Assembly (NCBI GenBank): GCA_964556455.1
Contig: CAZKWI010000001.1
Location: forward strand, 1 to 58,902
Length of the DNA: 58,902 bases
Direction: 5' to 3'
Origin: an uncultured Planctomycetia bacterium
Lineage (GTDB): Bacteria; Omnitrophota; Gorgyraeia; JABMRJ01
Shown here one piece after another: positions 6,313 through 58,902 of this stretch (the first letter of the stretch is position 1; each line of letters starts with the position of its first letter). The notes beneath the pieces were generated by a model. The model ran no database searches. It saw only the letters and a list, made by a program, of their open reading frames with translations, and was not told the DNA's origin. The translations under genes were made by a program, and so were the position numbers.

Positions 6313-6363
6313 ATTATCTCGTCAACGGGTTAATATCTTTTCTAAACGCTTAGATTGCCGGAT

Positions 6364-6400: not shown

Positions 6401-6443
6401 CCTAGTCTGCGAAACTTTATTTACTGCTTTACTAATTAAAAGA

Positions 6444-6472: not shown

Positions 6473-6564
6473 GCCTTAAATACTAGCTTTTTTAATATCT
6501 AATTTTATATATAAAATGTCTTTAGTAACTTTAATCCCTATACAAAAATCTAACTATTAGAAAA

Positions 6565-6773
6565 AAGGGGACGCCTCACTCGTCTTTAACGCATTATATT
6601 ATATAAAGTTATAGGAGTAGCCGGTACATGTTAGAAAAAATACATTAACTTTTGACATTATGGCTGGATTGATATGAGAGTATGGACAATGGGATGGGAG
6701 TGAAAAAAATGTACCTGTTACTATAGTAACTCGTTATGTTGTTTGGTGTAAGAGAGGAGTGAGGCGTCCCCTT
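6565..6773 (-). repeat. 17-bp perfect inverted repeat (6565-6581 / 6757-6773) enclosing 175 AT-rich nt, followed on the minus strand by a U-tract
   Basis: aaGGGGACGCCTCACTC at 6565-6581 is the exact reverse complement of GAGTGAGGCGTCCCCtt at 6757-6773. On the minus strand the second arm is followed directly by a T-run (plus-strand A-run 6561-6566, whose last two bases overlap the arm). The interior contains a 14-nt palindrome GTTACTATAGTAAC (6717-6730) and a 7-bp pair ggtacat (6623-6629) / atgtacc (6709-6715). The element starts 22 nt after the giant-gene stop. Confidence 0.5.
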
Positions 6774-6794
6774 ACATACCCTTACATACGTCCC

Positions 6795-12700: not shown

Positions 12701-15700
12701 CTTCATTTGCAAAGTTGCCGTATTCCAGCGCCCTAAGGAAGCTTTCGCATGCTCCTGCGTAGTCGCCGTTATCGAGCATGGCGTATCCGTCCGAGAGGCG
12801 GAATTCGCTGTCCTTTATACCTTCCGGCCTCAACTCATGAATACGCCTTATATAATCGATGGCCTCGGCGTTTGCGCTGTCAGATCCTAATACCATTCTG
12901 AATTCCTCAAGGGCCTCCCTGTATCTTCTGCCATCGAAGTGCAGTTTTCCTAATACAAGGTGCGCAGGCGCAAAGTCTTTATCCAGCGCAACGGCCGCAC
13001 CGGCTTCCCGCCGGGCCATATTGTCATGGCCCTGTTCCATATGGACATTCGCAAGGGCGACGTGTGCCTCTTTGGACTTTCTGTCAAACTGTATGGCCTC
13101 TTCGAGATACTCTATAGCCCTCCTGGGATGTCCGGCCTCGTTGTATAGCTCTGCTATGCTGACATAGATGTCTGCAGACGGGTTGAGCGTATATTCACGC
13201 CTCAGGAGGCCGACTCTAAGCTCTAATGTATCTTCACCGGATAAGGGCGGCATGCTGTTTATGAGGGTATCTATCCTCGCGGAATCATTATTTTCATTTA
13301 CAAAGTCCGGATTGGTGACTGTAATATTTCTCAGGGCTACTGTCAGCCTGTTTCTCTGCTCAGGAGACAGCCTGCCTAAGAGATCTTCTTCCTTTCTTGT
13401 GGCCGGTCTTCCTGTAATAGAGATTAACCGCGTCATCTCTCCCAGGATATCCGTGGACCCGAACTCTACATTGGTGTTGTCGGTCTTGAGTATGCTTACA
13501 GCGGTGACCTTGAGCGCTTTTAGCAGTCCGTTGAGGACGAGCATCTCCTCTACGGGGCTCAGGGTTCCGTCTTCCGCAAGCTCGACGAATTTTTTTAATT
13601 GCGCGGTCGTCTCTTCCTCTTTTGTCGCCCTGTCGAACCTCTGCTCAAATGAATCGGCGCCGGCTTCTGTGAAGTCTGTCAGCCTGGTTATAACCGAGCG
13701 CTCCCTGGCAGTCTCAAGGTCTGCTTCGCCGTCGGGTTCGTCATACGTATCGAGCCTTGCTGTTACTTCCTCTGTGAGTACAGTATCTACATCTATCGTT
13801 ACCGCATCATTTTCTCTCAAACTCTTTACTAGCAATCCGCCGTTCTCGGCCTCGCTGGCAGTCACTTTATCATCACTGAAGATGCCGTGTATGAGCCTTC
13901 GCGCAGCGGGCTCTTCTATCATATCGCTCTCTGCTACCAGCTTAAGTCCTTCCCAAGCGTTTGTGAATTCCATGCTCGTTCCTTCATCGGTAGCGCGCAT
14001 AACAGCCGTGTATTGCGGGATCGCCTCTTCCAGGCGTCCGGCCTTTCTTAGCGTATCGCCGAGCTTGACCCTCGATTCGAAATCGAGCGGGTTGCAGATG
14101 ACGGTGTCTCTGAGATGGTCTACAGCCATCGATACGGGCGATATGGTCTCTCCTATCGTTATGCCCATACCTTCCGCCTTACCCCTCAGCCACCGGAGAT
14201 CCGCCTGCACAGTCTCATCTGCCGCTACACCCAGGCGTTCCAACTCGCCATTATAATAAGAAGCCGCGTTAACGAGAATCTCCAATGCCCGGGCAACGGC
14301 ATCCTGTTCTTCGCCGGAGACCCATACACTTAAGAGCTCTCTCGCGTTCTCTACGGTATTCCTCAGGAGATCGGCAAGCTTATCCGTCTTTACTTTGATC
14401 TCGTCTTCTATCGATGCCGAAGGCATTGCAAAGAGCCCCAGGGTCTCCAGCTGGCTCTCCTTCTTATCCTCGAGTATCCTTATCTGCGTAAGTACTGCCT
14501 CCGCCTCTTCAGCATGGACGAGGAGGTGCGCTTCCGCCGCAGCAAGGCTCACCTTCGAATACTTCTCATCCTCTTCATGGCAGCGGCCTACAGCCAGTTT
14601 CACAAGCAACCTCTCCGCTATATCGCCTTCCTCGAGCCCCTCTGCGTATTCATCGTATTTCTCTATGGCCTCACCGTACTTCTCCTCTATCTCAAGCGCG
14701 CGTGCGCTATAATATAGGCCTCTTCCTTCTGTATCCTTTTCAAATGTGCCGAGCTCTTCCAGGAGGCCTTCTGTCTCTTCGAGCGACTTCTTAAGCTCTT
14801 CTATTTCTTCGTCGAACCCTGTCTCCGCTCTATCGTCAGCAACGATCCCTTCTTTAGTCTCCAGTTCCTCTATATAGTGCATGGTGGCCACTTCTGTATC
14901 TATGAGCGCTGTGTCTTCTCTTTCAGAAACGAGATCTTCGCGCTCCTGCCTTAAGTCCTGCAGGGCTTCCTGCCGCGCCTCTTCTATCTCTTTCTCAGCA
15001 GCTGTCTCAGCGCGTCCCGGGATAAAGAGCGATTCCCTCTCTTCTACCAGTTCCGCGATCTCTCTATCGAGCCTGGCAATTCTCCGTCTTAACGACCTGG
15101 CCCTAAGGGCCCTAATAGGCCTCATTCGCGATACGGGTCCGGCATTCCCTAAAATAGCCCTTATTACCCGGTGGCCTTCCGCTAGTGAGGCTACCGCTCC
15201 ATTGTCGAATAATTTTTCTGCGAGATCGCTCTTCCTGTCTACATAATCTTTCCATCCTTCTCTAGGACGTCGTAGTTCCGTTTCCACTCCTTCATAATAA
15301 TCCTCGTCAACCACATATCCCCGGACGCGGGCCCTGCGCTCCCTGATATCCAGGCTCAATTCAATAAGCTCGTCTATCTCCTCGCCCAAGCCAAGCTGCC
15401 TGAGAACCTGTATGCCCTCGAGCGCTGTCAATTCAAGGGCCAGCTCTTCTCTCTCATTCATCCTGTTTCCTATGACCGCGTCTTCTTCGGCCGTTATCCT
15501 CTCTATATCTTCAGTCTTCTCATCCGCAAGGGCCATAAGCCCTTCGATCCTCTCATCCAGCTCCCTTATCTTCCTGTCGAGCTCAGCCAGTGAATCGGCC
15601 CTCGCGGTCAATTCCGCTGTCTTGGTCTCCCTTTCGGTCTTAAGCGCCTCTGCCTCTCTGTCGAAGACCTCGAGCGCCTCTTCCTTTTCACTTATCTCCG

Positions 15701-18700
15701 CCCTGATGCGCTCTGCCTCGGCATTCAGCTCTTCCTTCCTCTCTTTTGTAAGCGAGCTGTCGGCCAGGGTCCTGTACGCAAATACTCTCGACCTGTTAGA
15801 ATTATTCTCATCCTGGGCGAATCTCAGGAGATCTCCTGTCTCAGGATGCCGGCATGCCCCAAATAGTGCGTTCGTCTCCTCTGCGCCCGCATCTTTAAGC
15901 CTCTCAACCCAGGTAACCTTCTCTTCGCCAGCCTTTGTGCGCTCTGCTTCAAGCTCGCTCTTCTTCTTGTCCAGCTCTTCGATCTGGCTCGTGAACTGCT
16001 TAGCCATATCTTCGTTGCCGTACATAGAGGCCATCTGGACCATTTGCTCCATCTGCTCTTTCTGCTTCTCAACGCCGGAGATCTCTTCGGTTATCTCGTC
16101 TCCGCGGCCAAGGACTATAACAACCGCGTCATTGTTACCGAGCACGGCTGCGGCGACCAGCATCTCATCCGAGCGCGCCTTCTGCGACTTACCATATCTT
16201 GCGGCCACCATACCGGAGATCCAGTTCCACAGCATGGCCGCCGGCGCTGCTATCAGTCCGCGGACGGACTTTCTCTCTTTCTTCTCTTCTGTCTTTTTCA
16301 GCTTCCTGAGCAAGCCCATCGCTAACGGAGAACTTGCGGTAAACATCAGGGCCTTGGTTGAGACCGCGGCAGCTGCCAGCCACACGATCCAGGAGGCCAC
16401 AGTGACCCCTACAAAAGGACTCAACACCGCTGCGATACCAAGGAGAACGAAGCTTATTCCGACAGCGAGGGCGACGCGCGCGCCTATTTCCAGCACACCC
16501 TGCGCGATCTTCATCTTGCCCCATTCCTCCGTAATCTTACTCTTTATCCAGCTGGCTATCTCACCGAGCACTCCAATCTGGGAGAGCAACACCAGGAGCT
16601 CGCCCTTCATATCTGTATTACCTCTCATGTTGCAGGATGAGAGCGCGCGCCTGTAAGCGGCGGCTGCCCTCCATGTTTCGTTCTTTGAGCTGTGCGCCTT
16701 ACCGAGCGCGTATTCTATATCCTCCGGGGCCCAATGCTCTATACCTCCAAGCTCTACATTGACGCCTTCGCGCGTTATAAGGTGCAGTGCCTCTATGATC
16801 TCCTCATTCAATTCTCTCATAAGGCTATCAAGGGCGCGGTTCGTTTCGTCCTCGGTGTCGAGGTTTCTTGCTATATCCGCAAGCTCTGCTGCTGCGCGCG
16901 CCTGCGCGGCTTCATCATCGCTGTTCCGCAGGTCGTTCACCAGGCCGCGTGATCTCTCCTGTATCTCTGCGTCTGCTTCTTCAAAGGCCTCCGGTATCTC
17001 GCGCCATGTCCAGATGAAGTCCTTTGTCCTCTCTTCGCGCTCTTCTTTTCTCGCCTTCTTGCCGGCATTCTTGAATATGAATTCTATCAGCGTAAATAAC
17101 GCGCGGCGCCACCAGCTCCTGCCGGGCACCTCTACCACGCTCACATCCGATATGAGGCGGCGCTCCCTGAGATCGTTCATGAACTCCTCGGCAGTGAGCC
17201 CTCTGTCGCCTACGGTTATATTCCCGTCAACATCTATGTGGACTTTGGGTTTTTCAGCAAGCCCGGATACCGTCCTGTCTTTACCGTCAAGCAGAGTGGC
17301 TTCATCGCCTGTGAGCGGAGTGAATACCTTCACGTCGTCGTCCGTATCGACGAACCCTATCTTCTGGCCTTCGATCTCGACGATGCCCTTCTCCTTGCCG
17401 GCGCTCTCATCGAGAAGCCGGTTTACACCGGCCTGTGACAGGTCATCATTCTCGTTATTGAGGCCTATGAGGCATCGGCCCAGATCATCGGTATCGTTTA
17501 AGAGCATAACGAAGAGTTCGCCTTCGCCGGAAGCGGAGCCTTCATCCTGGGCAAAGCCTACTATTACCACGTCTTCTCTCGTCCGCAGCTGCGGGTTCTC
17601 ATCGAGGAATCTATTGAGCTGGTCCCTGCGTCTCTGTGACAGGCTGCCGAGCTCGACAGGCTCTGCCTCTGCTTCGTCGGCTTCATCAGAGATGGCTTCT
17701 GTCCCGGGCGCTATAGCAAGAGATGGTCCCGTGCCGTATCTCTCATCCCACTCTGCTGCGACATCATCATACACCCTTCTTGCGTTTCGCCTCAATTTAT
17801 ACGCGGAGGCGGACTCATCCACCTGCGTCTCTAACCAGTCTAATATACCGTCCATATCACCAGCCTCCGGGAACTCCTGGTCCGATTCAGGCTGCTCAAT
17901 CGCAAGGCTGTCGAGCGTTGCAGCGCCTTCGTCAGACCTGACAGCGGCCCTGGTGACCGTCTCTGCAGGCGTCTCTGCTTCAGTCCTCCTACCGTATTTA
18001 CCCTGCCATACGCCTGACAACCTGCCCAGCGTCTCCCATGAGGACCCATGGTCGAGCGCTGCCAGATCTACCAGGTAAGAGAGGGCTATCCATGTACTCC
18101 TTGCCCTTACAGTATCGCCCTTGGCATCGACAATCGATCCCAGTTCAGCCAGCTCTTCTTCCAGCTTCCTGTCATCGCTGAAACCAAACCCACTCTTCCT
18201 CTTTCCGTGGACATCCTCATGCGCGGCGACCATCCTCTCGAATAACGCGATCCTGCTTGCGTCACTCAAGCCGCGGACGCCCTTTGCCACCAGTCCTTTT
18301 GAAATCGCAGAGACGCGCCTGCGCTGTTCGGGTGTAAGTCTTTCCGACATAAGTGCGAGATCTACAGGCCTTTCTTCACCCGCGGAGACAGGCTTCAGCC
18401 CGGCTTCATCATGGACCCTGATGTTATCGCATGATATCACGACATAGTCGCCTTCGACCTTCGGGCACCAGCCCATCGCGCCGCGGACCGGGCCATCGCC
18501 CATCTGTATCACATAGAGCTTCTTCATCGGGCCTTCTTCGACGACCTCCAGTATCTGGTAGAGGACTATCATCTGCGCGTCTTCATCCAACAAGAGCTCG
18601 TGGGAGGTTATGTCGTCGCCTTCATCGGCCACAAATCCTCTATCAACGAGGAATTCCCTGTTCAGCTTATTCATCGCCTGTATAACCATATCACGCGCGG

Positions 18701-21700
18701 CATCCTTGTCAGCCTGCGACAGGGTCCGCATCTCGCCCCTTATGAAGTCGAATCGGCCGAAGACCTCATCCGGCGTCTCCCACATGCCCATCGCCTCCTG
18801 CGTCATTATCGTCGTCTTCACTTCATCGACAGCTTCATTAAGTCTCCTCTCAAAGCGCTCCAGCCTCAAGGGATCCGACTCTACGCGGGAGGCATCCTCG
18901 GTCATCATGGCTGCGTCCTCTTTCGAAGTCAATCTTAAGGCAGCCCCCGCGCCCACTACCGCAAGCCCTTCTACTTCAGGAGACGTCGTCACTGCGCCGG
19001 CCGGGATCCTGTCTTCATCGTCTTTTGGTATCCAGGCTATCGGCTGCCTTGTAGCCTCTTCGTCGCTGCTGACTGATACGAGCGACGGACCGAGCTGGTC
19101 CTTATCCGCCATCAGGACTTCGACGCCGTCAACGCCGATGCGCGAACCATCCATCAGATCCACGGCCTCACCCATAATAGTCCCGTTCGACTCGATTTCT
19201 GACAATATCTCGCTGACATCGCTTGCCGCCGTCATAGCCGCCTGGGTCTCCTGCGTTGCAACGGTCGTGCCGACGACCCCTTCGCCTATTACAGGTGTCG
19301 TAACCTCGACAAACCTGGGGCCTGAGAGCGTCTCTTTCAGTTTGTTCTTAACGCGCGTCATTACACCGACGTCCGTTTTTGTCTTTATATTCTCGCGCTC
19401 CTGCAGCTGCCTGCCCCTGGCATCTGTTATACCCAGCTCCTCCCGGAGCTCATTTATACGCAATGTATAGCGGTCGATCACCGCTGTATGGGAACTGCTG
19501 TTTCCGGGATCGAAGGTCTTAAGTTCCTGGTAACATTCCGCTACCTTGTTTAGCCCAGCTAAGAGCCTGTCCTCTCTTAAGGTCCTGATCTCTTGGTCGA
19601 TCGTCCCTATGCTTTCGCCGGCGTCTATAAGCCTTTCGCGCTCTTCTTCGCGCGCCTCTATCTGCGCCTCTGTCGCCTCTACATACTCGCGCTCTCTCTT
19701 TATGGACGCTGTGAAGAAGTTTATCCCTTCCCTGTTTCTGCGGGCCTTGGCTATATTCTCGTCTATATGGGTAGATATACTCTCTGTAGTGACCTCTGTA
19801 TTCTGCAGCTTTACTATGGTATCGTTACAGCTATCCTTCGCCTTGGCCTTCTGGGTCCGGGTCAACTTGCCGCCGTGCATTATGCTCCCTACTTCCTCGT
19901 AGAAGTCTTTTCGTATCTCATCGATCTGGCCTCTCATATTCTCCCTGGCCGATACTTCGGTTAAGACCGAGACGAGAACTTCCCCGAACTCGGTATCTGT
20001 AACTTCCGCTACGCGCCTTGCCTCGGCAATATCGTTCTCGCCTATCATAATACCGAGCCTGTTCTGGACTTCGCGCGCTATTATGTAATCGTTGGCGCCT
20101 TCTATCGCGAGTATGTCATCGGCTTCCTGGATTATGCTGGCAGGCGGTGCGATACTCCTTGCCTTCCTGTAGGTCTCAGCCATCTTGTCAGACTGGGCTT
20201 CTCGTATCGCCTCGAGCATGGAGAATTTCAGATCTCCTGCCTCGGTATTCTCTTTGATCCTCTTCGCATCCATCTCTTCTCTTGCCTGCTGGACGATATC
20301 GAATGCTTCGTCGAAGAGTTCTTCTGAGCTTTCTCTCAGTCTCGCCAATTCTCTTTCGTTTCCTTCTTCACTGCTTAAGCGCTGCATCTGGTCGAAGGTA
20401 TCGTAAGCCTCGTTCAGCACCCTTCCTTTCCTGCTGAACGGGCTCGTGCCGAACCACCTCATCGCATCATCGAACATGCGCCTTGTGCTCTCTCCGCGGT
20501 TAAGGAGTAGATAGACTCTCGTCTCGCCTTCCTGCCCCTGCCTTCCTGCCCTGCCGCGCAGCTGCATCTCTACTCTATTGGAGCTGTGCAGATATAGCGC
20601 TATGACGAGCATACCTTTGTCTTTGGCAAGCGTCGTAAGCTCGATGTCTACGCCGCGGCCTCCTATGGCCGTTGCTATCGTTATCACTCCGGGGATGGCT
20701 GCCCTTCTCTTGATCTCGTCTTTATTCGCTTCCTCGCGCGCGGTGAACTTCTGGATGTTGCCCTCTTCTCTTATATCATAACCGTTACCGACGGCCTCGT
20801 TTATCCTCCTTACATTCTCTTCAGTAAGCAGCATATCCCGGACCTCATCTGCCTGCGCAATATCTTCGACGTTCAGCATGATAGGCCTGCCTGCCCTTAT
20901 ATTCTCTATCACGTCTTCTACAACCTGATTTTCCCTCTCTGCTCTATCCAAAAAGAGCCTCTTCGATGCATCCACCCTGCGGACGAAGTTGTGAGGAGGT
21001 ATGATCTGGCGGTTGAAACAGTACGTATCGCGGAGCATGTCGGACTCTTTGCCCCTTCCGAGGGTTCCTGTCATGCCTATCGTATTTACGTATATGTCTA
21101 CGAAGAGCTGTTTGGCCGTTATCTCCGAGGACGACCGTCCTTCACCCCTTATTATCAGCCATTCTTTTGCCTCGAGGAGCTGGTGGAGGCTAGCCTTCTT
21201 GCCGCCCCTCAGCCTCTGGCCTGCCGAGTCCGTTCCTGTCATCTCATGGGTCAGGACGACCTGCCCGCTGACGATTGTGTAGTGTGTGTCCACTTCATGG
21301 GCATGACAAGCAGTCAGGGCGTCTTCCATAATGGCGAAGTAGGAGCCCTCTTTCTTCATCCTCAGGCTCAATATCTCTTCCTCGCTTGCGTTATTCAGGC
21401 CCTTCTGTTCTTCTCTTATTCCGCTTACCATAGTGGAGACGGTGGTCGCTATGAGAGTCTCGTCTTCTGCCTGGTCGCGCCTGCCTGAGCGCCTCAATTG
21501 CTCCTTCAGTCTCAGTTCGAATTCATTCCTACGGCCTTCCGGCGCCAGGACATCCGCCATGGCATCCAGCACGTCTTCCCTCTTATCGGTATCTACGCGC
21601 CCCTGTCTCCAGGTTGTATCTATTACGCCTACGGTATTGTCATCCTGTTTGTTGGTCTGGCCTTCATCGATCTCACCCTCTACCTTTTCACGGTAAGACC

Positions 21701-24700
21701 CTCTCATGCCCCTTGTCTCTGCCGCCATGGCCGCGGCGATGATCTTCGCGGTATCTTCAAGCCCCAGGGTATCGCTGCCGTCAACGGTAATAAATGACGT
21801 CAGGGCCTGGTCTATCAATACGCTGTCGAGCTCATCGACTATCACTGAGAACTTTTTCAGATCCTTCCTGTCCGTTCTTATGAGCCTTCTGCTCGCCTCT
21901 ACCTCTGTGACATCGAGGTCATGGTTCGTATCGAAGGCGAGGGTGTCTACCGCAAGGCATATGATGTCGTTCTGCCTGTAGGCCTTCTGCTTCGTCTCGT
22001 TGTCCATGCGCTGTGTAACGTGGCCTATGGATATGCCGTATGGCTCCAGGACCCTCTTGGCGCCTGCAAAGGTCTTGTCAGAGAGTACGCTGCCTGTATC
22101 TACATAGAATACGCCTTCTCCCGAGAGCGAGTCTACGTAAGAGGCCATGTATCCGACGGTCGTCTTACCTTCGCCGGTGAGCAGCTCTATGACATTGCGC
22201 ACTTTACTGCCGTCTTCGTTTCTTTCGGTCAGCGCGTCTGCCGCGGCTACCTGGACTTCACGGACGACCTTATTGTCTCTTCTAAGCAGTATAAGCGCTG
22301 CGACTGCCATCTTCCTCGCCTTATTGTTTGCGCCATCCTGGTCTGCTCTGCGGAGGGCGTCTCTCCACATATCTATCTGCCCCTGGAGCTTTCTCCTCCT
22401 GTGGCCTTCGCGCGCCCCTTCGAGCTGGGCTTCCAGGTGCGTAATCTTGCCGGCGATCTTATCGCGCTCTGTCAGGAGCCTGGTATGCTCATTTGCGACG
22501 TTATCTATTATTTCCTGGCCGGACTCTGTCGCTTCTATGTCCCATATGGATAAGAGTATCGCTCCATCCGGGGCCTCTATCTCATCCCCCCACTCATCCT
22601 TTCGCCATTCATCTCTCATACTCGTCATCACTATATCTACATCATCGCCCTCTGCCATCCTCAGGTTAGTCTCAAGTTGCGCCCTTTCGGATATCTCTTT
22701 CTCCAGTTTGCCGAGCTCGCCTGTCAGGTCTACGAGTAAGCCGCCGAGGTCCTCTCTATTGCCGCTTTCGAGCATATCTCCTATATCTTCCGTCATCCTG
22801 CCGGTACTCTCCGCAAGGGTTACAAGTATTAATCCGGGGCCGTTACTTATGACTGAGAGCATCCCGCCGTAATTACTCCTTAAGAATGTCGCTGCCCTCT
22901 CTTTCTCTTCCTGCGTCAGGCCGGATCGTTCGATCAGGGCTATCGCGCCGAATTCCCCGACAAGCTCGTTATCAAGATTCATCATGTTATTAAGTATCTT
23001 TCTATAGAGGGTGCTGTCAGCGGAGATGATGCGCCTGAACTCAATATGCATCTCCTGTTCTCTCGTCTCTATGAGGCTGTTGACCGCGCTCCGGTTTATG
23101 GCCTCGAAGGCCCCTTCAAGCTCCGCAAGCGTAATCTCTCCCGTAGCTATGCGGACGACAAAGCGCCTCAGCGCCCACTGGTCGCCTTCTCTTATGGCAT
23201 TAAGCTCGTCTACTGAGACGGTATCGAGATGCCTCTCTATAATCCCGCACCATCCCGGGTGCTCGGAGAGTCCGTCCCTCAGCGACTCGGCAGCGCTCCA
23301 CATCGCCTCTGTCCGCTTCGTGCTTCTCGTTCCTGTCGCTATTATGAGGACTGCGAAATTGACAGCGCCTCTTATGTCACCGTCCAGCGCAGCGATACGG
23401 TCGATAACAGCGCCTACGTTTCTTCTTGTTATCCTGCCGCCGCCGGTGATATCTCTTATGGCCTCCCTGAGCGCCATGCCCTCCTCACCGAATACCTCGT
23501 CAACCCTCTCGATCGCATCATTCAGCTGGTCAGCGACTTCATCACGGAAGCTTTCATCTGTCCTCAGCCTCTCCTGCAGCTCACCGAGCTCGCCTTCCGC
23601 CAGGAGCGTATCGAATCCTTCACAGAAATCAGCGCTTACGGTACTCTCCGGGTCGTTCCTCCTCAGGATCTCGTTTTTCAGCTCGGTTATCCTGTTTCTC
23701 ATATCTGCCATGAGCCCGTTAATCGCATCTCTTAATTCGTTCTCAAGGGCTTCGAGCTCATTAATGAAATCAAGCATCTCTCTTCTTGCCGGGGTTGTCA
23801 GTTCGGTCATTGCCCACTCAGTCTCCAGATCTTTCAGCGCATCTATTTTCTCTGTCTCGGTCATATCTTCGCTGGAGATTATAGAAGCCGCCTTGCTGAA
23901 CACCGGATCACTGCTATCTGTCATGGCCAATATTTCAGCCTCTTTGTCAAATACATTATCCAGTATTCTGAGCGGCTCGCGCACGAGTTCTGCAGATTGC
24001 GTGCCTGAGAGCCTTTCGCCAATCTCCCGCATAGCCTCAAAATCTTCTCTTCCACAGGCTTCGCGGAACGCCGCGAGGTCGTTCATCTCGGAGACCATGT
24101 CTCTCTCTTTCTCACCGAAGAACTCAGCGCCTTTCTCGAGTTTGCCTTCTGCCGCAAGCTCGGGGATTTTCTTTCCTTCGTGCCTCTCTATAAGGACCTT
24201 GGCCTTCGACTTATTGATAACGCCCCTCTCCGCTCCTCTTTCGAGCATCTGTATTATGCTGCCGTCTGTCCCCTTGAGGAGCTCTGAGAACATTTCGCCC
24301 TGGGAGAGGCTGCCGACAAACGGCATCCAGCATAAGCTCCTGGTTACGCCTGTTGCGTGTTCCTGCTTGATCCTGCGCGTGCCGCCGCCGAACCTGGAGA
24401 CGGTATCGACATATCGCCTCTCCGCGGCAAAGTCTACAAGGAGAGCCATGTTCTCGTTTATAAGCTCCGCATCCCTTTCGCTGGCGTTACCGCTCTCAAG
24501 GAATGCCTGCTGGACAGGCAGGGTCTGGCGGAGTATCGCTATCTGTTTATTGCGGGCATCCGTAACAGCCCTCTGGTCTTCTTCGCTTACCGTGAGGGCG
24601 TCTCTCAGTGTACCGCCGCCTATAGTCGGTAAGGCCTCGAGCGCTGCCTCGACAGCTGGCAATCTGTCTGCGCCGAAGGTGTCCCTGTTGGAGAGGACTG

Positions 24701-27700: not shown

Positions 27701-30700
27701 AAGGAGTCTCCTGGAAGAGATCGCCTGCTGAGGCAAGGAGGTAGGGAATCACATCACATACAGGGACACCCTCAGAGGCGGCATCCGTCAGTGTGTCAGC
27801 AAGGTCTTGCCCGGCAACCTGGGTATCCCAGCTATGCTCTCTCAATAGCTCTACTGCCCCTTCAGTCCCTTCAGTTAAGTCCATGCCGGCCGCAACTTCA
27901 AGGGCCGCCAGGCTCAGCAGCTGTCCGCGCTCGAATGAGACATACGGCATGGCTAATAGTAAACCTTCAGCCGCCTGGAGAACCTCAACATCGCATCCTT
28001 CATAATTGGCCTCGCGCACCTCTTCGCTTCTCTGAGCCTGCGAAAGAAGCTCCAGCTCCTCTGACGAATGCCTGCCCATGGCAAGCAGCCTATTTACCCC
28101 TGCCATGTCAGCGTCAGCAAATACGCCTGCGTCCTGCAATGTCTTTATCGCGCCTGTAAGGCCGGCCTGGAAATTCATGAAATTGCTATCCGCCTGTGCA
28201 GGCTGAAGTTGAGCAAGCGCCTGGTCAATAGCCTCAACCTGGTCCAGATCCCTTTGCATTTCGTGCACATCGAAGAGATCGATTCCATCCATCAGCTGCT
28301 GCCGCAACTGTCTCACTTCCGCAACGGCGGTATTGGTTTCGGTCCTCGTCTCCTGCTGGCTCACATTATAAGTGCCTGAGAAGTGCACACCGTTGGCGTC
28401 GAGGGCCTCTACCGCTATCTCCTGGATATTCTCATCCGGTATCCAACTGAGGAAGACGTTGGCGTAAATAGGCTCTCTAAGACCCTCTTCTGTGAACGCC
28501 CTAACAGCCTCTTTTGAAGGCCCTGAGCGCCTGTATGCCTTTGTTGCTGAGCGGAAGGCATTGCTTATTCCTCTGCCCAATCCGGATATGCCTCTCCAGC
28601 AAAAATCACCCAGCTTAGCCATCATGATTACAATCGGAATGTGTCCGCTGCCAGTCATGCCGGCTATACTGCCCATAGAACCCAGGGCGCCGCCGATACT
28701 GGTTCCTGTGCGCTGTACAGTAAACGAAGCGCGCGTGAGCGCGCCGGAAACACCATAGCCTATCACCTGGCCTGTGAACATCGGCACGACCTTGAAGTAA
28801 TTGAATATGAATACGAAAGATAATGACATGGTAGCGCTCTCAGCAGAGCTGAACATATGGGCAATTTGTCCTATGCCGCTACCACTATCGGCCATGCTAT
28901 TCAGCATCAATGCTATTCCCCTACCCATCCCGCTCAACGTGAACCACCCACCGTCCTCAGATAGGAGCGTATCTTCCATATCGCCCATGCCGGCCCAGCT
29001 GAGAGCTCCTCTCAAAGGTACAGAGACGGCATGGAGCATGATAGGCAGCGTAATATTCAATCTTATAAATTCACCTGCAAGATGCGCCGGGTGTAAGCCA
29101 CTCCATGCTGCTGCGCCCCATGCCTCTGCTCCTGTTAAGAATTTTAGGACTGCCTTTCCGGCATCATCAATCTCGGTCACAAAATACCTCAACTCAAAAT
29201 TCCTTATCTTGGTGGCAATGCCGCGTCCTATGCGCCCCATGCCACTGCCGACAGCCCCCAATAAGCGTAACGGCGCTCCTAAGACAGGCCTTGCTGCAGC
29301 CCTTGTAAGCATAGAAGCTGTTCCTGAGCTGATCATAAACCACTGGGTGCTTAATCTTGTAGTAACCGGAGCGGCTATTCTGCCTATAAATCCTCCTACA
29401 GCGGACCGGGCCGTGGCAACTACGCCCCTGAAAGCATGAATTCCTCCTACGGCAGCGGAGCGGACACCTATATTTATAAGGAACCCGCTCGCAGCCCATG
29501 TGCCTGCGATAAACGGCAGGTCATAAGCGATGCTCATAATGCCATGCCAGACTTTGTGGTCTTCAAAGTAGGATTCTATATTCTCTATAGTTACTGCGCC
29601 AAACTCCGCCTTTACATCTGAGGCGGTCCATAACGCGCCTCCATAGAAGGCCGCCGCTGTGGTAGCGGTCCAAAATGCCGACTTCAGCACTGCGGAAGAG
29701 ACCACTACTTTACCGGCAAGCGGTACACTTATAGTGGTCGTAGCTGCCCCGCCTACAAGAGACCCTCCACCTGCAAGAAGAGACCCGCCGCTCGCTATTA
29801 TTACAAATGCATATAAGACGCCTTCGCCTATAACGGCTGCCGTCTTCAAACCGCCGGCATCCAACCAGCTCGACAACTGTTTTATCTTCTCTTCTATTAC
29901 ACCAATCGACATAGCGGCATGAAGCGCATGCTCAGAATCCATCATGGTAACACCTGTATCCACATCAAAATGCCACTGCTCGGATACGCTGGATGAGGAC
30001 CCTATCCATGAATACGGATTATAGAAATGTGAGTCTTGGTAATCGCCTGTGAAAGCCACTACATTATCTTTTGTAATTCTAGGGCCCTGCCCCTTATATG
30101 TGAATGCAGCCAGGACACCGGTGTCTTCATCCCGGACCGCTTTGATGAATGCGATATTGCCGTCTATCTCCCTGGATACCTGCAGGAGGTTGCCGCCCAT
30201 ATCGTATTTGGCCGTCATATCCGCCTTCTGGGGGTTATTATCCCAGATACCGAAAACATCCCAGCCCCACAGGTTCAGCATGCCGGTTTCGTCCCTTGTG
30301 GAGATGTAGGCAAATCTCTCACCACCCGCGCCCATGATAGGCAAGGTTGCATTCATGCTGTCTTCATTATTCCCGGTTACAGTGTAAAGCGTCAGGTTGA
30401 CAAGGGTGTCGTTTGTTACGATATAATTTTCGTTGCTGCCTACTGTCCCCTCGTTTTTAAGCATGGCTATGCACTTTTTAACTGCGTAATTAAACTGCTT
30501 CCTTTGCGTATTGCCGTTTGCTACGGCCTCTGCCATTATCCCATCTATCACATCACTGCTGCATCCTGTAACACGCTGGAGCATAACCGGCAGTTCCTTC
30601 GCCATGAAATCTTCATCGGCCCGCTGGGCCGCCTCTGTGCGGAATACACCGAAGTCTCCCTGGGTAAGATCGTAATATTTCTCCTCCCATAACTGCTCCA

Positions 30701-48700: not shown

Positions 48701-51700
48701 CGTCATTATCCGACACAGCGCCGGCCGGCATATCGGCAGCAGTGTAATACTCGGTAATATCTTTCGACTCGCCGCTCCTGAAGCCGGCCCTGGAGTAGCT
48801 GATACGCGTCGTGGTGGCTTTAGTTGGGTCGTTCTTGTCATATTCGGTATCGGCATAGCTCGTGCCGCTTATGCCCTTAGGCACCATGAAGTCTTTGGGG
48901 TCCTGAGGGGGGTTCGCAGGGTCGAAATCGTCCCAGTCTATGAAACTGCCGGTGCCGTCATTGCCCTTGAAGGGCCTTAGCTCCTCGCCGCTGTCCCAGG
49001 CTGTATTGAAGTCTGTCTCAAACTGCTCTATAGAGCTGATATCGAATGTAAGGTCTGAGGATATCGGGTAGCTTTCTTGAGGGGTTAAGTTCAATATATA
49101 GTGGTGTGTCGCTGTATCGACTCCGCCGCCTGATTGGATCATGAGAGGGTAGAAATTAAAGACTACCGGGTTGAAATGGTCGGCTGCCCAGGCCGGATCG
49201 AAGAAGCCCGCGGGCCTTGTCGCGGGGATGTCTTCGCCATTCATAGCGCCCCTTGTGCGGTTGGCCGCGTCTACGCCGCTTTCCGTCTCAGTGCCCAGCG
49301 ACCTGTTGTACGATATGGTGAATGTCTTCGAAGCCTCTACATCTTCTACAGCGCCCTTGGGATCGGAGGTGGATTCGGTTATATACTTCGTGAGGGTTAC
49401 GCTGTCGTGCATTTTGTGGCTATCGTGCTTATCCACACCCTCTTCCCACCTTACTGACTGCTCCTGCCAGCCTTTTTCATTGAACCTCGTCTCGGTGTAA
49501 TAATATCCTGTATTTTTTGACACCCCTCCGATAAGGTACTTATGGAACATCTTGCCGGACCCCTGAGAGTACATCGCGGTATCGAACACTATGTTAAAGG
49601 TGGTCCTCGTATAATATTCAGCGGTTTTGTTGCTGGTATATCTGTCATAGGACATACCCTCTGTCTCGGTCTTCTCAAGCTGGCCCCACTCGTTGTATTT
49701 GCTGAAGGCATAGCTGTTTCCTACAGTGGCGCCGTTGTACCTGTCCTTGCTTATAGTATCGGTCTCTGACTTACTTATGATGCCCCAGTCGCTGGTAAAT
49801 TCGTTTATTGTCGTATAGGTGCCGGTGGCCGTCTGGGTGTGGCGGTCTACGGTATCGCCGTTCGTGACGCTTTTTATCACTGTGCCGTAGTTATCTATAT
49901 GGCCCTGGGCCTTGTCGGATATGGTGGTGTAGCTGCCTGTGCGGACAGGCATGGGGCTGCCTCCGTCATCATTTACGATATGCTTGTCATAGCTTATGCC
50001 CGTAGTCTGCGTCTTTCTTAAAATACCGCGGTCGGTAAACCAGCTTATGGTGGTGTAGTCGCCCACCTTGTTTTCGGTGAACTTGTCTTTCGTGGTGCCC
50101 TTTGTCACGTTCTTCTTGACCGTGCCGTACTTGTCGATCTCGGTCGCTGTTTCGTCCTCAATTTCCTGGGCTTCTGCTTTATACCCGCTGCCCATCTCAC
50201 CCGCATTCCAGTTTGCCTCATCCAGCACATTCCAGCTTGCCGCGCTGTTTTTGGCGATAGTCATGTATTCCGCTATAGGATCCTTCGTATAATCATATTC
50301 ATCTGAACCCGTCCCGGGTATCAGGCCCCATGTATAGCCCTTGGTGCATGTATTCTGCATAACGCCAAACCGCTTCTGAAAGTTGTTATACGTATAATAC
50401 GTACCTATATTTGGCCCGCAAAGTTCGTCTATCCAGGGGTCTCTATCGGTGCTCTTGCCTATCAACATGTTGTCGTGCGTATCCAGGCCAACCTTGTAAT
50501 TACGGCCTTCTGTGTATGATTTTTCTATCACGCCGAATTCAGTTATATAACCGCCGGTTATATCGGTCTTGTATGTACCGCTTACATTGTAGTTCTTGTG
50601 GCCGCTGGTGGCGGCCTTCTCTTTAACGTAGCTGGCGCCGACAGTATGCTGCTCTTCCAGGTAGCCCCATTTGCTGTTCTTAGCCAGCGTCCTGTATTCG
50701 CCTGTTATGTTCGCGCCTTTTTTGGAATTGCCTATTGTAAATACGCGCTCTACTATGCCGTACTGGCTTATCTTGCCGAGCTTGTCGTTGCCGGTGGCGG
50801 CGATCTCTTCCTGTATATCGCTCCACAGCCAGTTCGAGATATCCTGCGGGTCCTGCACATAAACGGCGTCGACATTCGCGAAGCTCCAGTATGTACCGGT
50901 CACCGCGGTAAGCTCGTGGCCGTAGTTCCTCCCGTGCGTTATCTGGCTCTCCAGTATGCCCCAATGCTCGTTATTGTTGTTCCTTGTGACATATTCGCTT
51001 GTTATGTCGCCGTTCTCGCCGCGGCAGGAGTTGCCTATGGTCACGCTGTTCTTCACCACGCCCCAGTCGGTTATCTCGCCAAGGGCCGGAGCGGTTATGA
51101 TGCTCCTCACCCATGGCTGTGAGGTGTTGTAGAGGGCGAGGCTGGTAAGCTCGTTAAACTCGATGCCCGCGTAGCTCTCGTATTTGCCGCCTATATCCTT
51201 GGCCGCGTTCACGTACGTCCTGCCGCAGGTGTACTGCTTATCCAGCATGCCCCAGTTATTATTCCTGTTCTGCGTTATGTATTCGCCTGTCGTCACGTAA
51301 TCCGGAGTAGCGGACGATGTATCGCCGCGTAAAGACCTGCCCAATGTCACCGACTCGGTAACGACGCCCCAGCTGTCGCGCCTTCCAAGGACAACCACAG
51401 GCGGCGTATCCGTATTTGTATATTTCAGCTCGTCTATCCTGGTGCTAAGCCACGGCGTGATATTGCCGCCCCAGAGGGTCGCGGGGCTTTCCCAGTTCAC
51501 ATAGGTCAGGTACTCGCCGCTTATAGTGTCTTCCCTGTTATCCGTCGCGTAACTCTTTCCGTGGGTGTAGCTCTTATGGAATGTGCCCCAGTCCGTATTA
51601 TGGCTCTGGGTTACATATTCGCCGGTCACGACAACATTGGCTCCGGCGTCCGGGTGCTGGGAATTACCCAGGGTCACCGACTTCTTGATTATTCCCCAGT

Positions 51701-54700
51701 CGTTCACTTCTCCGAGCTTGTCGTTGGCGTCCTTGAGGCTGGTCAGTTCCGTCTGTGCCCATGGGGCTATTTCGCCTGCCGGCGCGTTAAACGGCCAATT
51801 ACCGAACGGGTTTGCCGCCGTAGGCCCGGGATAATCGCTTTCCACATAAGTTATGTACTCTCCGGCAAAATCATTGTTCCTGTTAACTCCTAGATAGCTT
51901 CTGCCGTATGTCTCCTGTTCCTTCAGTATGCCCCAGGCGGTGTTTATGGTCTCTGTCACGTATTCGCCGGTTATCTTCGTGCCTGCCCCTATGCCGTGGC
52001 GTGAATTACCTGTGGTGACGGAGCTCTTCACAGTGCCCCACTTGTCTATCTCGCCCCATTTGCCGGCGTTCTTCAGGCCCGCGAGCTTTGCCACCAACCA
52101 TCCCGGTTTAGGGGCAGGGCCAAATGGGTCATCCACAAAGAGAGAGTCCTGGCAATATATATCGTCTGTTACATCATCAAGCTCGGTGTCATCGATGCCG
52201 GCGGCCGTTTCGTACTCGCCTCCTACAGCAGGGTCGGGATTATTGTTGTTCACATATGTCTTGCCCTGGGTATGTTGTCTATTAAGGACGCCCCATATCG
52301 TGTTAAAGGCGTTCGTTATATACTCTCCTGTCACATCCCCGCCTGCGCCGTGGCGCGAGTTGCCGAATGTTACGCTCTGCGTAGCAGTGCCCCACTGGTC
52401 TACCTGGCCCAATGTATTCAGGCGTCCCGCAGCCGGCATTGTCATGTCTGGTGTGCGCATAGCCAAAAGCCTGGTGTTTGTCCATGAATGCTTCCTGTTG
52501 GGATATACGCTGCTTATTGCGGGTACATTTGCAAGGTCTATATTCACGAAGGTCTCATATTCGCCGCTTACGTCCTTATTGAGGTTCGCATAGCTCTTGC
52601 CGTGGGTAAACTGGTTGCTCAGAATACCCCAGTCGTTATTATTCGCCAGGGTAAGGTATTCGCCGGTTATTTCATCTGTCGGGTCGCCTGCGTCATTCTG
52701 GTGGCCGTGGCGGGAGTTGCCTATGGTCACCGACTGCTGGACGCTGCCCCATCTGTCCACGCCTCCGAGAGTATTGACCGTGCCGCCTGTCCTGGGCGTG
52801 AGGGCCGCGTTGGCCATCGTCTGGAGCCACGGTGTCAGCCCGGAAGGCGGTGTCCTGTCCACATAAGTAATGTATTCCCCTGATATCTTTAGCGCAAGAG
52901 CCGCGGGAGGGGTGCCTATCCTCGCATAGGTCTTGCCCTCTGTGTGCTGGTTGTGCAGTACTCCCCAGGCGCTGTTGTTGGATGTGGTGATATATTCGCC
53001 TGTAACTTCGTTAGGAGTAAATGCGGGGGCGGGGTTTAACCCGCGGCAGGACTGGCCGAGCGTTATACTCTGTTCTACAACGCCCCACTGGTTCACTCTA
53101 CCGAGCGTGCCGCCTGTTAGCGCCGCGAACGCCGCTCCGTCATTTCCGCCCCAGCAAGCTGCCGCGCCTCTTATCCATAAATGTTCAGAAGCATTATAAA
53201 TTGAAGTCGCGGGAAGCGCGATAGGATCAATATTGGCGAATGTTTCATAGGTTCCGTTCACGAGTATGTTGCCTGTAGTCAGGTCGCGCGAATAGTTCTT
53301 TCCTATTGTATATTGGTTTGTGAGCGTACCCCAGTTGTTATTATTGGCTACGGTGATATATTCGCCTGTCTTCTGAGCCACGGTGCCGCGCATCGATCTG
53401 CCTACAGTTATAGTCTTTGTCACAGTGCCCCAATTATTTATCACACCATAGCCACCCATGTCAGGAAAGAGAGGATGCGCCCTGGCCCATGGCTCGAAGG
53501 GCGACGGCAATCCTCCGGCTTCACCGGCGAACGGGTTGCCGCCAGGCGCAGCCGGATTGTGCGCCCACGACAGGTATCCGCCTGTAAGGAGCGGCATCGG
53601 CAGGGCCGCGCTGTTCCACATGCGTGTCCTGCCTGTTGTTTTCTGGTTGAGCAGAATCCCCCAGGTGTCGTTATTTGAAACTGTGAAGTATTCGGCTGTA
53701 ATGGAGCCTGTCTGGTTTCCGCCGGCTGTGAAGTTGCCGCGGATGGAATTTCCTATGGTGACTGTCTTTCTTATATCTCCCCACGCGCCGATATCGCCGA
53801 ATGTCCCGGCTGTCAACAATGCCGCCACATCGCCCCCCAAGACGCCTAAGCCGGTCATGAGCCAACCTGTAGTATTTGAATCGGCTGTGCGCACCCTCGT
53901 GCCGCCGCCCGATCCGAGGTAAGTATCCAGCCGGAAATCAGGTGTCCCCGGTGCGCCGGCTCCTCCGGGGGCGCAGTTAGCGTATGTGACATACTCGCCG
54001 CCTATGTCATTACTGTCGTTGGTGTATGTTATGCCCGCTGTGATCTGGGCCTGGAGTATATTATCGGTGAAGGCTGCGAGTCCCAGATAATCCGACCATG
54101 TTATATATTCGCCTGTTATGGGGCCGGTCCGGCCGCGGCGGGACCTTCCTATGGTAACGGTCTGAAGCACATCGCCGGATGGGCCTATGCGCCCCAACAC
54201 CGGGGCGCCGGGTATCAATACTCTGAAGGCCCTCCGCAGCATATTCCTGACCCAGTCGGTGCCGTTCGTTATGGGGCCGCGTCCCGCGAAGGTGTCGTAT
54301 TCGCCGGTCACGGACTTCGCGGCGTCTGAATATGATTTTCCGTGTGTATGCTGTTCTCCCAGGACGCCGTAGTCGCTGTTGGTCGATACCGTTACATATT
54401 CGCCTGTTATCTCGTTGGGATTCCCGGCGCCGTCCAGGTGTCGGAAAGACGCTCCTATAGTAACAGATTTGTCCACGGTCCCGCCTGTGACCGTGCCGCA
54501 CCTTCCCCCGCCGTTACCGTGAGCGGTCGCCATAGCCGTCACCCAGGGCGCATACCCTGCGCCGACTATCTGTGAATTCACAAGCGTCTGGTATCTGCCA
54601 ACCACTACCCTGGTGCCGAAGGGGTTGATTGTGGTCGAATACGAGTAAGACTCGCCTATAGTGCGCTGTGACATAAGCGTATTCCAGTTGTTATTGTTCG

Positions 54701-57700
54701 TCTCTGTAATGTATACGCTTGACGTATCGGGATTTGGCACGCCGCCCGCAGATCCGCGGCAGGATATGCCTATCGTAACCGACTGCAATATAGTGCCGTA
54801 TACAGGATCAACTATGCCGTAAGTCTGTTGCCCGGGCGGGCCCGAAAGGAATCCGGCCAGCGTAGCTGTGAACCATGCGGGCGCTCCGTTAGGATCAGGA
54901 GTTAAAGAGCCGAATTCTCCACCCGGAGGAGGTATATTGGCGAAGGTCCAGTAGCGGCCCATTATCTGAGCGCCCATTCCCAAGCTGGATATATTGCTTC
55001 CCCTTGTTTCCTGATTATTCAATACGCCAAAGGGATTATTGTTGCTAATTGTAACATACTCACCTGCAATGCTGGCCCCTCCTCCTCCCGCTCCGAAGGC
55101 GTTCGTGTTACCGTAAGTGACGCTCTGGAGAATAGTTCCCCAGGCGTCTATGTTACCAGCCGCTGCAGGCACAAAGGCGCGCGTCCACCCCGCGTCCGTG
55201 AAACCAGGAATGTTTGCTACGCCGAAAAAGTTGTTAGTTGCGGTCCAGTATTGGCCACCTACAGCCCCTCCCAAGTTAAGGTATGACTGGCCGTGGGTCT
55301 GCTGGTCCATCAAAATACCCCATCGCGTATTCTGGGATACCGTTATATATTCACCGCTTACGACACCGTTCTTGCCTATGGAGTTACCTACGGTTATCGA
55401 CTGCTGCACTGTTCCCCATTGATCGATATAGCCTATTGTAGCCCTCCCTGCCGGAAAGCCACCGCCTATATCAGCGTTGATCATACCTATTGCCCATCCA
55501 TTCGCAGTACCCAGGTCCGCATTTATGAATGCGCGGTCGACAAACCCCTGGGACGGCCTGTTCGTGACAAGCCCCGGTAAGAACGGATCGTAAGCGAATG
55601 TCCAGTACCTGCCGTTCACAGTGCTGGTGTCCGAGAAATTCACCCCCGCGGTCAGCTGTATCTGGAGGATGCCCCACCTGTTATTGGCGGAGTCGGTGGT
55701 GTAGCGGGATCTTACGGCGCCGCCAGGGCCGTTGGAAAAGCCCACTGTGCGGGTCGCGCGGACAGTGCCCCATGCGTTTATCTGGTTTGTGCCGGTTCCC
55801 GGCACCGGCACGGTCGCGTCCGCTGTAGTGGTATATCCGCCTCCTACGGTGCGGTTTCCGTCGATATACGTCTGGCCGTTGGTCACCTGGAGTATGAGCG
55901 TGCCGCACCTGTTATTGGTCGCTATGGTGGTATATTCGCCTGTCAGGATGAGCTGCCCTGCGGCGCTGCCCCTGAATGTGTCGCCGTAAGTTTCAAGAGA
56001 GCGGACCACTCCGCCTATTATCGATGTCGCGGTCGTGGTATATATGCTTGACAGTTGGGGATTGGCATTGCCGTTTATGTAAGTCTCGCCTCTTGTATTC
56101 TGCGCGGTCAGCGTGCCGTATGGATTGAAGAACGCATTGGTCGTATACCGGCCCGTTACGGCACCGCCTAAGCCCCTCATGGACATGCCGCTTGTAGTGG
56201 TAAGGTCCACCTTGCCGTAATCATCCATGAAGGACTCTGTGAAATAATAGCTGCCCACGTCTCCGGCGTCGTTTACGCGGCCCCAGCCCTCTGTCTCCTG
56301 GAGCGTCATCTTGCCCCAATCGTCGTATACGGCTATCGTCTCATAAGTCCCTGTGGTGGTGGTGCCGTTAACATAAGAGCCTTCTGTCCCTGTAGTCTCT
56401 ACTATTCCCCAGGCGTGAAAACCTGTCGCCACGGTAGTATATCGACTGCCTACCGTTCCGCCTTCATCAACATAACCCACGCCTTCGGTAACCTGCGAGT
56501 TCAGCATGCCGTCCGCGTCGAATTCGGAATCAGTGGTATAACAGCCTGTGACGAATGAATCCGTCAGGATAATATCGTCCCTGGTAAGCGTACCGTCATC
56601 CACTATAAAAGCGCCCGCCGCCACGCTCCAGCCTTCCGTCCGGCTGTCCTGTACAGTGCCCCACTCGCTTATAGTGTTGGGGTCGGCGGTCGTTATATAA
56701 TAGCTGTTTATGCCTGCGCCGGAGTTATAGAAGTTCACGCCTATCGTATTCTGGCTCTCAAGTATGGCTGTAGTCTCGTTAAAAATGGAGCTGGTATGGT
56801 ATTCGCCGGCAGTTATATTGCCCTGGCCCATGTTGTAGCCTTCGGTGTCACTGGCTTTGATAACCCCGTATTCCGATATGTTATCGGAAGTGGCTGTGGT
56901 CAGGTAAATGCTGGCCAATCGCTCTGTGGCGTCTATATAGCTTTCGCCTTCGGTCCTCTGCGAGGTCAGTATTCCACCTGCCTCACTGAAGGTCGAATCT
57001 GTCGTGTACCTGCCTGTTATGGCCGTCCTCGCGCCCCTGTTTGATGTCCCGAGCGTACGGCTGAATGTTACGGTGCCGTATTGGTTGATGTCGTCATTCC
57101 CGTCTTCATTTACGTCCTCCGAGGCGTCCGCAGTAGTGGTATAGGTGCCTACTATAACGCCCGACCTTCCTTCCAGGTATGTAATGCCTTCTGTCTGCTG
57201 GTAGTTCAGCACCCCTGTGTCGGTATTGAATCTGTTATTGGTGGTGTAGTCTCCCGTCTTCTTGGACGCGTCACCGTGCATTGAACAGCCGACCGTCTGC
57301 GAACTTGCTATTACGCCCCACGCCGTTACATCCTGCATTGTTACGGTGGTAGTATACTGCCCTGTAAGCTTGGCGGGCTCGTTCAAAAGATGGCTCCAAC
57401 CCTCGGTGAGCTGCGTCCTGATATGGCCGTAGGAAGGATCGAACGTGCTCGTGGTGGAATAGCGGCCTATGACATTGGTCTCTGTGCCGCGCAGCGAAAG
57501 GCCTCGCGTGGACGAGTCTGTGACCACGTTCGAGTTGTTTATGTCGCCGTTTGCCCTGGTGGAGGTGGTTGTGTATTTTCCGGTAAGCTTTGTCGGCTCT
57601 CCCGCGACGTATGATATGCCTTCAGTTACCTGGCTCAGAAGGTCGCCGGCTATGTTGTAGTCGTTCTCCGTTGTATACTGGCCAGTGGCCTTGCTCGGGT

Positions 57701-58902: not shown

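Follow-up and report, generated by a model that had tools for sequence, protein, structure and literature searches.

Giant proteins of the Omnitrophota are among the largest proteins known and are mostly unannotated. The closest described counterpart of the element analyzed here comes from this group. A preprint on these proteins presents a predicted antiparallel β-helix tubule of ~1,500 amino acids (aa) with regularly spaced outer helices, which its authors called novel and Rhs-like, together with a giant-protein SecA that lacks the scaffold/wing domain and a "Dockerin-type" class that carries dockerin, TSP3, and C39 (West-Roberts et al. 2023, bioRxiv 10.1101/2023.11.21.568195). Complete Omnitrophota genomes were the subject of a 2026 preprint, which listed a SecA-DEAD architecture cluster and deferred structure prediction for the unannotated fraction to later work. 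Here we analyze a stretch of 58,902 nucleotides (nt), contig CAZKWI010000001.1 of assembly GCA_964556455.1, referred to below as the window, in which a single giant open reading frame (ORF) encloses a long tandem array of hairpin repeats. The array is probably the sequence basis of the published Omnitrophota β-helix/stalk module and would be an exported, extracellular, noncatalytic scaffold used to reach or hold prey; structure prediction has very probably already revealed the element that the repeat builds, in proteins of this same class. What is new here is a sequence signature for the repeat, a census of its occurrence, and a strand register that is independent of AlphaFold; no new kind of system is revealed.

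In general build, the array also resembles three other groups of proteins. Like the RHS/YD shells (the Rhs proteins of type VI secretion systems [T6SS], the ABC toxin components TcB/TcC, and teneurins), it consists of tandem β-hairpins predicted to form a long, curling antiparallel sheet, and Rhs cores are its best matches among solved structures. The YD repeat is ~21 aa long, and the 2,700-aa array has several times the length of a closed Rhs shell. The array differs from these shells in having a unit of ~35 aa, no detectable sequence relation to them, no Rhs core motif, and periodic helix inserts. MORN repeats and the single-layer sheets of OspA are, like the array, elongated antiparallel hairpin arrays without a conventional globular core, and both appear among its local structural matches; the array differs from them in unit length and conserved residues, has no Pfam match, and reaches template-modeling (TM) scores of only ~0.1 to 0.2. 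Choline- and cell-wall-binding repeats and the clostridial CROPs share with the array a hairpin design with many aromatic and glycine residues and a two-level order, a longer unit returning each time a set number of short units has passed. Compared with these, the strands of the array are longer and its periodic element is a helix, not a long hairpin, and no sequence match or significant structural match to them was found.

A hairpin repeat without a curated family

The original prediction, made from the sequence alone, had placed an array of ~2,800 aa at nt 49370-57797. The array is real and its extent was given correctly, but it is not a stand-alone entity: these coordinates correspond to aa ~350-3159, or the first 16%, of the visible part of a 17,349-aa ORF whose 5′ end leaves the window. 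The pattern G.[LIVMTAF]...xT.G has 54 matches in aa 350-3160, compared to 2.45 (maximum, 7) in shuffles of that region and 5 matches in the ~14,200 residues elsewhere in the giant ORF. A hidden Markov model (HMM) of the WG strand found 52 copies at the reporting threshold, every one of them within aa 400-3,052, and an HMM of the family-wide unit found 56 units in the window protein. The basic unit is 32 to 36 aa long and is present in ~56 copies between aa ~380 and ~3,090, with the consensus [YWF]G[TIV][LV]xx[QST]xTxGxS[YF]-loop-xxGxYTTx[AS]xN[DN]; when the copies are stacked, they give a ~35-aa unit of the form tGxYtT...(n)xWGxLxxQxTxGxsY. The possibility that the region is noncoding sequence or an artifact is excluded by the 52-kb open frame and by homologs 25 to 42% identical in other metagenomes.

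Pooling the window protein with its relatives yielded 376 units in 46 proteins and a more precise signature. The first strand reads [YWF]1-G2-[TIV]3-[LV]4-x-x-[QST]7-x-T9(97%)-x-G11(97%)-x-S13(76%)-[YF]14 and is followed by a loop of 5 to 9 residues; the second strand reads [VIT]21-x-G23(86%)-x-Y25(95%)-T26-T27(93%)-x-[AS]29-x-N31-[DN]32. Among the family-wide units, columns 7 and 31 mark two alternating subtypes, and the aromatic columns 1, 14, and 25 are kept across the family. In composition, the array contains 13.4% Thr, 12.9% Gly, 7.4% Asn, 5.1% Tyr, and 2.5% Trp, each well above its level in the remaining protein.

Within the array, the units of ~110 aa, at least 16 of which had been predicted at nt ~50,560-55,800, were found to number 16 and to lie at nt 50541-55793. 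These super-units start at aa 1018, 1136, 1228, 1342, 1447, 1549, 1681, 1798, 1913, 2025, 2144, 2262, 2376, 2485, 2587, and 2688, and the last ends at aa 2768. They are 81 to 132 aa long, with a mean pairwise amino acid identity of 36% (range, 23 to 47%). Each is composed of four strands of the form WGxVxxSVTxGNS / ITGEYxTxSxN / WGxLxxQxTxGxxY / VxGxYxTxAN; behind these comes a variable insert, predicted to be helical, with a conserved Trp at its start. Columns G9, T16, G18, Y39, T41, T56, G58, G77, and Y79 are invariant in the super-unit alignment. The insert had been described as carrying its Trp in an amphipathic context. The Trp is indeed present in 15 of the 16 super-units; however, the mean helical hydrophobic moment of the inserts is 0.29, compared to 0.26 after shuffling, and in none of 15 inserts does it reach P < 0.05. 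As a helix, the insert is thus not measurably amphipathic.

The super-units are old and have diverged, as had been proposed. Nucleotide identity between pairs of super-units is 40 to 57% (average, 48%). With a proportion of 0.70, synonymous differences are near saturation. Neighboring super-units are hardly more similar to each other (0.39) than are distant ones (~0.35), and Tandem Repeats Finder detected no long-period DNA repeat in the array. The absence of a long-period repeat and the near-saturated synonymous differences rule out a recent tandem expansion; the module is ancient and conserved. The ratio of nonsynonymous to synonymous substitution rates (dN/dS), which had been suggested as a check, could be computed, but its crude median of 0.43 is not a reliable estimate because synonymous sites are saturated.

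We compared the array to known families at the levels of sequence and profile. At E ≤ 0.1, Pfam assigned nothing to aa 1-8500, and at E ≤ 10 it likewise assigned no family to four super-units, aa 349-1017, aa 1-348, or aa 3149-3948; NCBIfam gave 0 families. Profile searches of PDB sequences, run with the super-unit alignment and with a homolog-based alignment, returned nothing at E ≤ 10. Pfam produced no match in the region to MORN (PF02493), CW_binding_1 (PF01473), VCBS, FG-GAP, YadA head, YVTN, or Kelch, and neither Pfam nor NCBIfam produced a match to carbohydrate-binding families or to the RHS_repeat (PF05593) and YD-repeat models. An hhalign comparison of the super-unit profile with genuine Escherichia coli RhsA gave a probability of 0.2%, and a regular-expression search for the Rhs core/autoproteolysis motif PxxxxDPxG[LW] found it absent across the 17,349 aa. 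Judged by these searches, the repeat belongs to no curated family, in agreement with the original prediction, whose author had matched the unit to no family that it knew. To call the repeat undescribed is nevertheless too strong. No sequence-level definition was found in the literature that could be searched, whereas the architecture of the host protein has been published and includes the ~1,500-aa tubule (West-Roberts et al. 2023).

Predicted fold and strand register

We modeled two portions of the array with AlphaFold. For the super-units, a segment of four (aa 1913-2375; 463 aa) was modeled with a four-row alignment of nonoverlapping paralogous windows. The resulting model has a pLDDT of 69.1 and a pTM of 0.71, with strand blocks mostly at 80 to 90. 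Each super-unit in it contains four strands of 9 to 13 residues followed by one or two helices of 8 to 15 residues, which begin at the conserved Trp. The three hairpins per super-unit that had been proposed are therefore not borne out by the model, which gives two hairpins and a helix; a super-unit would consist of two basic hairpins plus one helix. For the simple units outside the super-unit region, aa 500-1017 (518 aa) were modeled with six homolog segments, giving an all-β structure of ~30 strands of 10 to 13 residues (pLDDT, 59.8; pTM, 0.63). Structure prediction thus yields a regular repeat fold, as the original prediction would require, in the form of an antiparallel meander.

Foldseek searches with the super-unit model returned only antiparallel-strand arrays, none of which matches globally. 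In the PDB, the top matches are the T6SS Rhs cores 8qjc and 8qjb (E, ~3e-7; TM score, 0.05 to 0.08; root mean square deviation, ~25 Å), and OspA and porin-like barrels are also found. In a viral structure library, MORN-repeat proteins are the best named matches, with TM scores of ~0.2. The simple-unit model gave nonsignificant matches only, to curli CsgA (E = 0.03), Ag43, EtpA, and pertactin.

An independent view of the strand register came from covariation among 292 units less than 80% identical, drawn from the 46 proteins, with the subtype columns 7 and 31 left out and significance assessed by permutation. Mutual information between the two strands peaks at the anti-diagonal i + j = 36 (z = 10.1 versus permutations), while all remaining registers, antiparallel or parallel, have z ≤ 5.6. 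Charges at columns 12 and 24 are complementary as well: opposite and like pairs occur in a ratio of 34:14 within a unit and of 29:2 where strand B meets strand A of the following unit. This covariation fits a continuous antiparallel meander and supports the same register as that in the AlphaFold models, though obtained without AlphaFold. In the register suggested, Gly11 lies opposite Tyr25 and Thr9 lies opposite Thr27; the packing of an aromatic residue over a cross-strand glycine is a known stabilizing arrangement. At 4.8 Å per strand, we estimate that ~112 strands would have a contour length of ~54 nm as a flat ribbon, or roughly 18 nm if the array were coiled like the Rhs spiral.

Relatives and probable nature of the array

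To define the range of the repeat, 1.84 billion representative proteins were searched exhaustively by hmmsearch with the super-unit profile. This mode of search was used because low-complexity words mislead a word index; word-indexed searches with the array and with a homolog-enriched alignment gave 0 or 3 matches. The exhaustive search found 49 proteins at E ≤ 1e-3, of which 26 passed E ≤ 1e-10 and 15 passed E ≤ 1e-30, so the family is very rare. Two scans of species-representative genomes gave no match. All 13 cluster members that bear an organism name come from metagenome-assembled genomes of Candidatus Omnitrophota/Omnitrophica, and the named members are annotated as hypothetical, except for one dockerin-containing protein. 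In their best BLAST alignments, the relatives are 21 to 53% identical to the window protein (25 to 29% for long alignments). Most are fragments broken at contig ends. Metagenome assemblies tend to break inside the array, and the HMM-level definition given here, which covers one of the largest unannotated modules of these giant proteins, would allow it to be annotated even in such fragmented assemblies.

The giant ORF meets no stop codon in nt 58845-58902 and is still open where the window ends; its true N terminus therefore probably lies beyond the window, and the GTG listed as its start is probably not the real one. Only ~380 residues precede the first repeat unit in the window ORF, compared to 1,400 to 2,350 in four relatives (L003, L004, L005, and L006) whose ORFs start inside their contigs, which then end within the array. 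A signal-peptide-like hydrophobic segment opens three relatives with intact N termini (P0005, P0006, and P0022), of which P0006 continues as a partial protein. Dockerin_1 (8 stretches in P0004), TSP3_bac, EF-hand, and Peptidase_C39 adjoin the repeat in P0004, P0005, and P0006, whereas L005 and L006 contain no Dockerin_1, TSP3_bac, EF-hand, or C39. In some relatives, DxDGDG-type loops occupy the place of the Trp insert of the window protein. The residues ahead of the array are also conserved: BLAST aligned aa 6-1245 to P0005, P0006, P0007, P0009, and P0022. A metagenome scan with the N-terminal 348 aa gave no match, and the missing N terminus was not recovered.

The remainder of the giant protein provides further points of comparison. 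A hydropathy scan revealed no membrane-like segment N-terminal to aa ~9,650. A SecA-like module lies beyond this point, with matches to SecA_DEAD (E = 1.6e-28), P-loop_SecA, and SecA_PP_bind, and TPRs come after it. The scaffold/wing domain (SecA_SW) was not detected in this module, which is 27 to 33% identical to canonical SecA. A search with the module gave canonical SecA throughout the at least 120 matches listed, with no related giant proteins among them.

Taken together, these features suggest that the region encodes the β-rich scaffold belonging to an Omnitrophota-type giant surface protein. The ~56 hairpins, each of two ~12-residue strands, would join neighbor to neighbor in a single continuous antiparallel sheet. 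In the middle of the array, over 1,750 aa, a short helix that starts with the Trp and is inserted after each second hairpin would generate the 110-aa super-units. The product would be a long, rigid stalk or a hollow β-helix "tubule," with the helices on its outside, and not an enzyme. Because relatives have signal peptides and the protein has no early membrane segments, we infer that the array is extracellular. Export would proceed via an N-terminal signal peptide lying outside the window. On the cell exterior, the array would have adhesive modules (dockerin, TSP3, and EF-hand in relatives) on its distal side and, on the other, the C-terminal half, anchored in the membrane and bearing the SecA-like ATPase and the TPRs. 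With the array, an ultra-small predatory or epibiotic cell would probably hold its attachment machinery toward prey or extend it in that direction.

Much of what West-Roberts et al. (2023) describe has a counterpart in the window protein. Both have a long N-terminal part without membrane segments, late anchors, a SecA DEAD domain without a detected scaffold/wing domain, and TPRs; dockerin, TSP3, and C39 recur here in relatives of the array, and every relative with an organism name belongs to the same phylum. The tubule and the super-unit region are both unannotated, are similar in length (~1,500 aa and 1,750 aa, respectively), are predicted to form a single continuous antiparallel sheet with regularly spaced helices, and resemble Rhs proteins in Foldseek searches. 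On these grounds we infer that the array corresponds to the published tubule. The two differ in that the Archaeovorin example has paired outer helices, whereas the array mostly has one Trp-initiated helix per four strands, and the super-units are flanked by helix-free stretches. No sequence motif or repeat family was found in the preprint text.

Several observations weigh against the identification with an exported stalk or tubule. The dockerin-type example in the preprint has outer β-sheets rather than helices, so the array may be a different variant. Confidence in the models is moderate, with helices at a pLDDT of ~50 to 70 and the simple-unit model at 59.8. Export of the window ORF, whose own N terminus is missing, rests on its relatives, and Pfam found no dockerin or TSP3 match in this N-terminally incomplete ORF. 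In addition, the relative L001 has a stop codon directly after the array and no long C-terminal half.

Among other readings, the least improbable is that the array is itself an adhesin, with a lectin-like or cell-wall-binding surface (as in choline-binding/CROP or MORN proteins) that binds prey polymers via rows of Trp, Tyr, Thr, and Asn. We regard this as unlikely, although it is compatible with a stalk. Such a surface would suit the enrichment of the array in Thr, Gly, Asn, Tyr, and Trp, the retention of the three aromatic columns across the family, and the position of MORN-repeat proteins as the best named matches in the viral library; clostridial CROP repeats likewise mix short units with periodic long ones. 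However, the most conserved residues (Gly11, Tyr25, Thr9, and Thr27) are accounted for by cross-strand packing in the register given above, and CW_binding_1, MORN, and carbohydrate-binding families all failed to match in sequence. A two-sheet parallel β-solenoid of the curli or autotransporter type, whose units would form strand-arc-strand coils, each in register on the one before, is much less probable. The matches of the simple-unit model to CsgA, Ag43, EtpA, and pertactin point toward this fold, but they are nonsignificant and derive from a low-confidence model, and the better model matches only antiparallel structures. The very high per-column conservation could mean residue ladders; the anti-diagonal covariation on the variable strand face and the charge complementarity of flanking strands argue instead for in-plane hairpins, not arches.

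We hold in similarly low esteem the idea that the array is a self-contained, single-polypeptide hollow β-nanotube conduit through which the SecA-like motor of the same protein feeds distal domains or separate effectors to the prey cell. If true, this would be a contact-dependent delivery device of a new kind, made of repeats from a family so far found only in Omnitrophota. A very divergent RHS/YD-type shell around a toxin or cargo domain is, if anything, harder still to credit. The small E values of 8qjc and 8qjb, the Rhs resemblance remarked upon by West-Roberts et al. (2023), and a few YD-like strings elsewhere in the giant protein favor it, but the same structural matches have very low TM scores and large deviations, and neither the family models, the RhsA alignment, nor the core motif search detected any relationship. 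The unit length and the 2,700-aa extent of the array, several times that of a shell, are likewise unlike those of RHS/YD proteins. Fragments of 4 to 8 super-units were identified as suitable for structural and binding experiments.

Organization of the giant protein and its surroundings

The modules of the giant ORF are listed in the table below.

Table 1. Features of the giant ORF, with window coordinates (nt), strand, and the basis of each assignment
Feature	Position (nt)	Strand	Basis
Giant ORF, 17,349 aa	6795..58844	-	ORF call; open frame at window edge
Pre-array module, aa 1-379, many Tyr-containing strands, Gly/Ser/Arg linker at end	57708..58844	-	BLAST alignments to relatives
Simple-unit array I, aa 380-1017, ~18 hairpin units of ~35 aa, without helix inserts	55794..57707	-	Pattern, HMM, AlphaFold
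Super-unit array, aa 1018-2768, 16 units of ~110 aa	50541..55793	-	Alignment, AlphaFold
Simple-unit array II, aa 2769-3100, final ~7 recognizable hairpin units, without helix inserts	49545..50540	-	Stacking, HMM
First hydrophobic membrane-like cluster, aa ~9650-10080	28605..29897	-	Hydropathy scan and sequence reading
SecA-like ATPase module (SecA_DEAD, SecA_PP_bind, P-loop_SecA), aa 12118-12737	20634..22493	-	Domain matches
Strongest predicted transmembrane helix, aa 14124-14142	16419..16475	-	Hydropathy scan
TPR repeats, aa ~14914-15437	12534..14105	-	Domain matches

Further local features accompany the array. Just ahead of the first hairpin units, at nt 57807-57932 (aa ~305-346), lies a Gly/Ser/Arg-rich low-complexity linker, GGGGSGGGG...RGGARGSGRGGIRGASGG, in which Tandem Repeats Finder reported a 9-nt short repeat at nt 57896-57917. 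The inter-hairpin loop DVNEDGNDD at aa 577-585 (nt 57090-57116) resembles calcium-binding-type loops of the DxDGDG form, and the same nucleotides were also flagged as a 12-nt tandem repeat. Downstream of the array, YD-like strings without Pfam support, such as EYDSDGRLKQINEWGY at nt ~47600-47660 (aa ~3736), are found generally in aa 3400-3760, a stretch that may be another degenerate hairpin region. Elsewhere in the protein, HExxH metalloprotease-like strings occur at aa 6910 (HEAFH; nt 38103-38117) and aa 16307 (HEACEY; nt 9909-9926), and a JAMM-like HTHPE occurs at aa 16914 (nt 8091-8105); Pfam supports none of these.

The giant gene is directly followed downstream by another large minus-strand ORF (nt 1-6321), at least 2,107 aa in length, which leaves the window at its left edge. 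It has only weak Pfam hints, to PTS-HPr (E = 0.005) and DUF4271. The G+C content of this ORF and of the final ~1.2 kb of the giant gene is 0.45 to 0.47, compared to 0.50 to 0.58 elsewhere.

The genes upstream of related giant genes differ between contigs, as seen from a comparison of L003 (nt 7097-9500) with L004 (nt 1-8348). One such neighborhood contains a PilZ protein and a UvrD-type helicase, and the other contains an RND efflux system with an outer-membrane factor, a membrane-fusion protein, and two AcrB-like pumps. Conserved pilZ genes have been reported, but downstream of giant genes (West-Roberts et al. 2023, bioRxiv 10.1101/2023.11.21.568195). Finally, in L001 (JGI 3300021154, Ga0216261_1001667), the spurious minus-strand ORF pattern of its protein, P0001, repeats exactly every 3,462 nt across nt 1110-7217. 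This indicates a recent DNA-level duplication of 3.46 kb (1,154 aa) inside the P0001 array, in contrast to the window protein with its ancient units.

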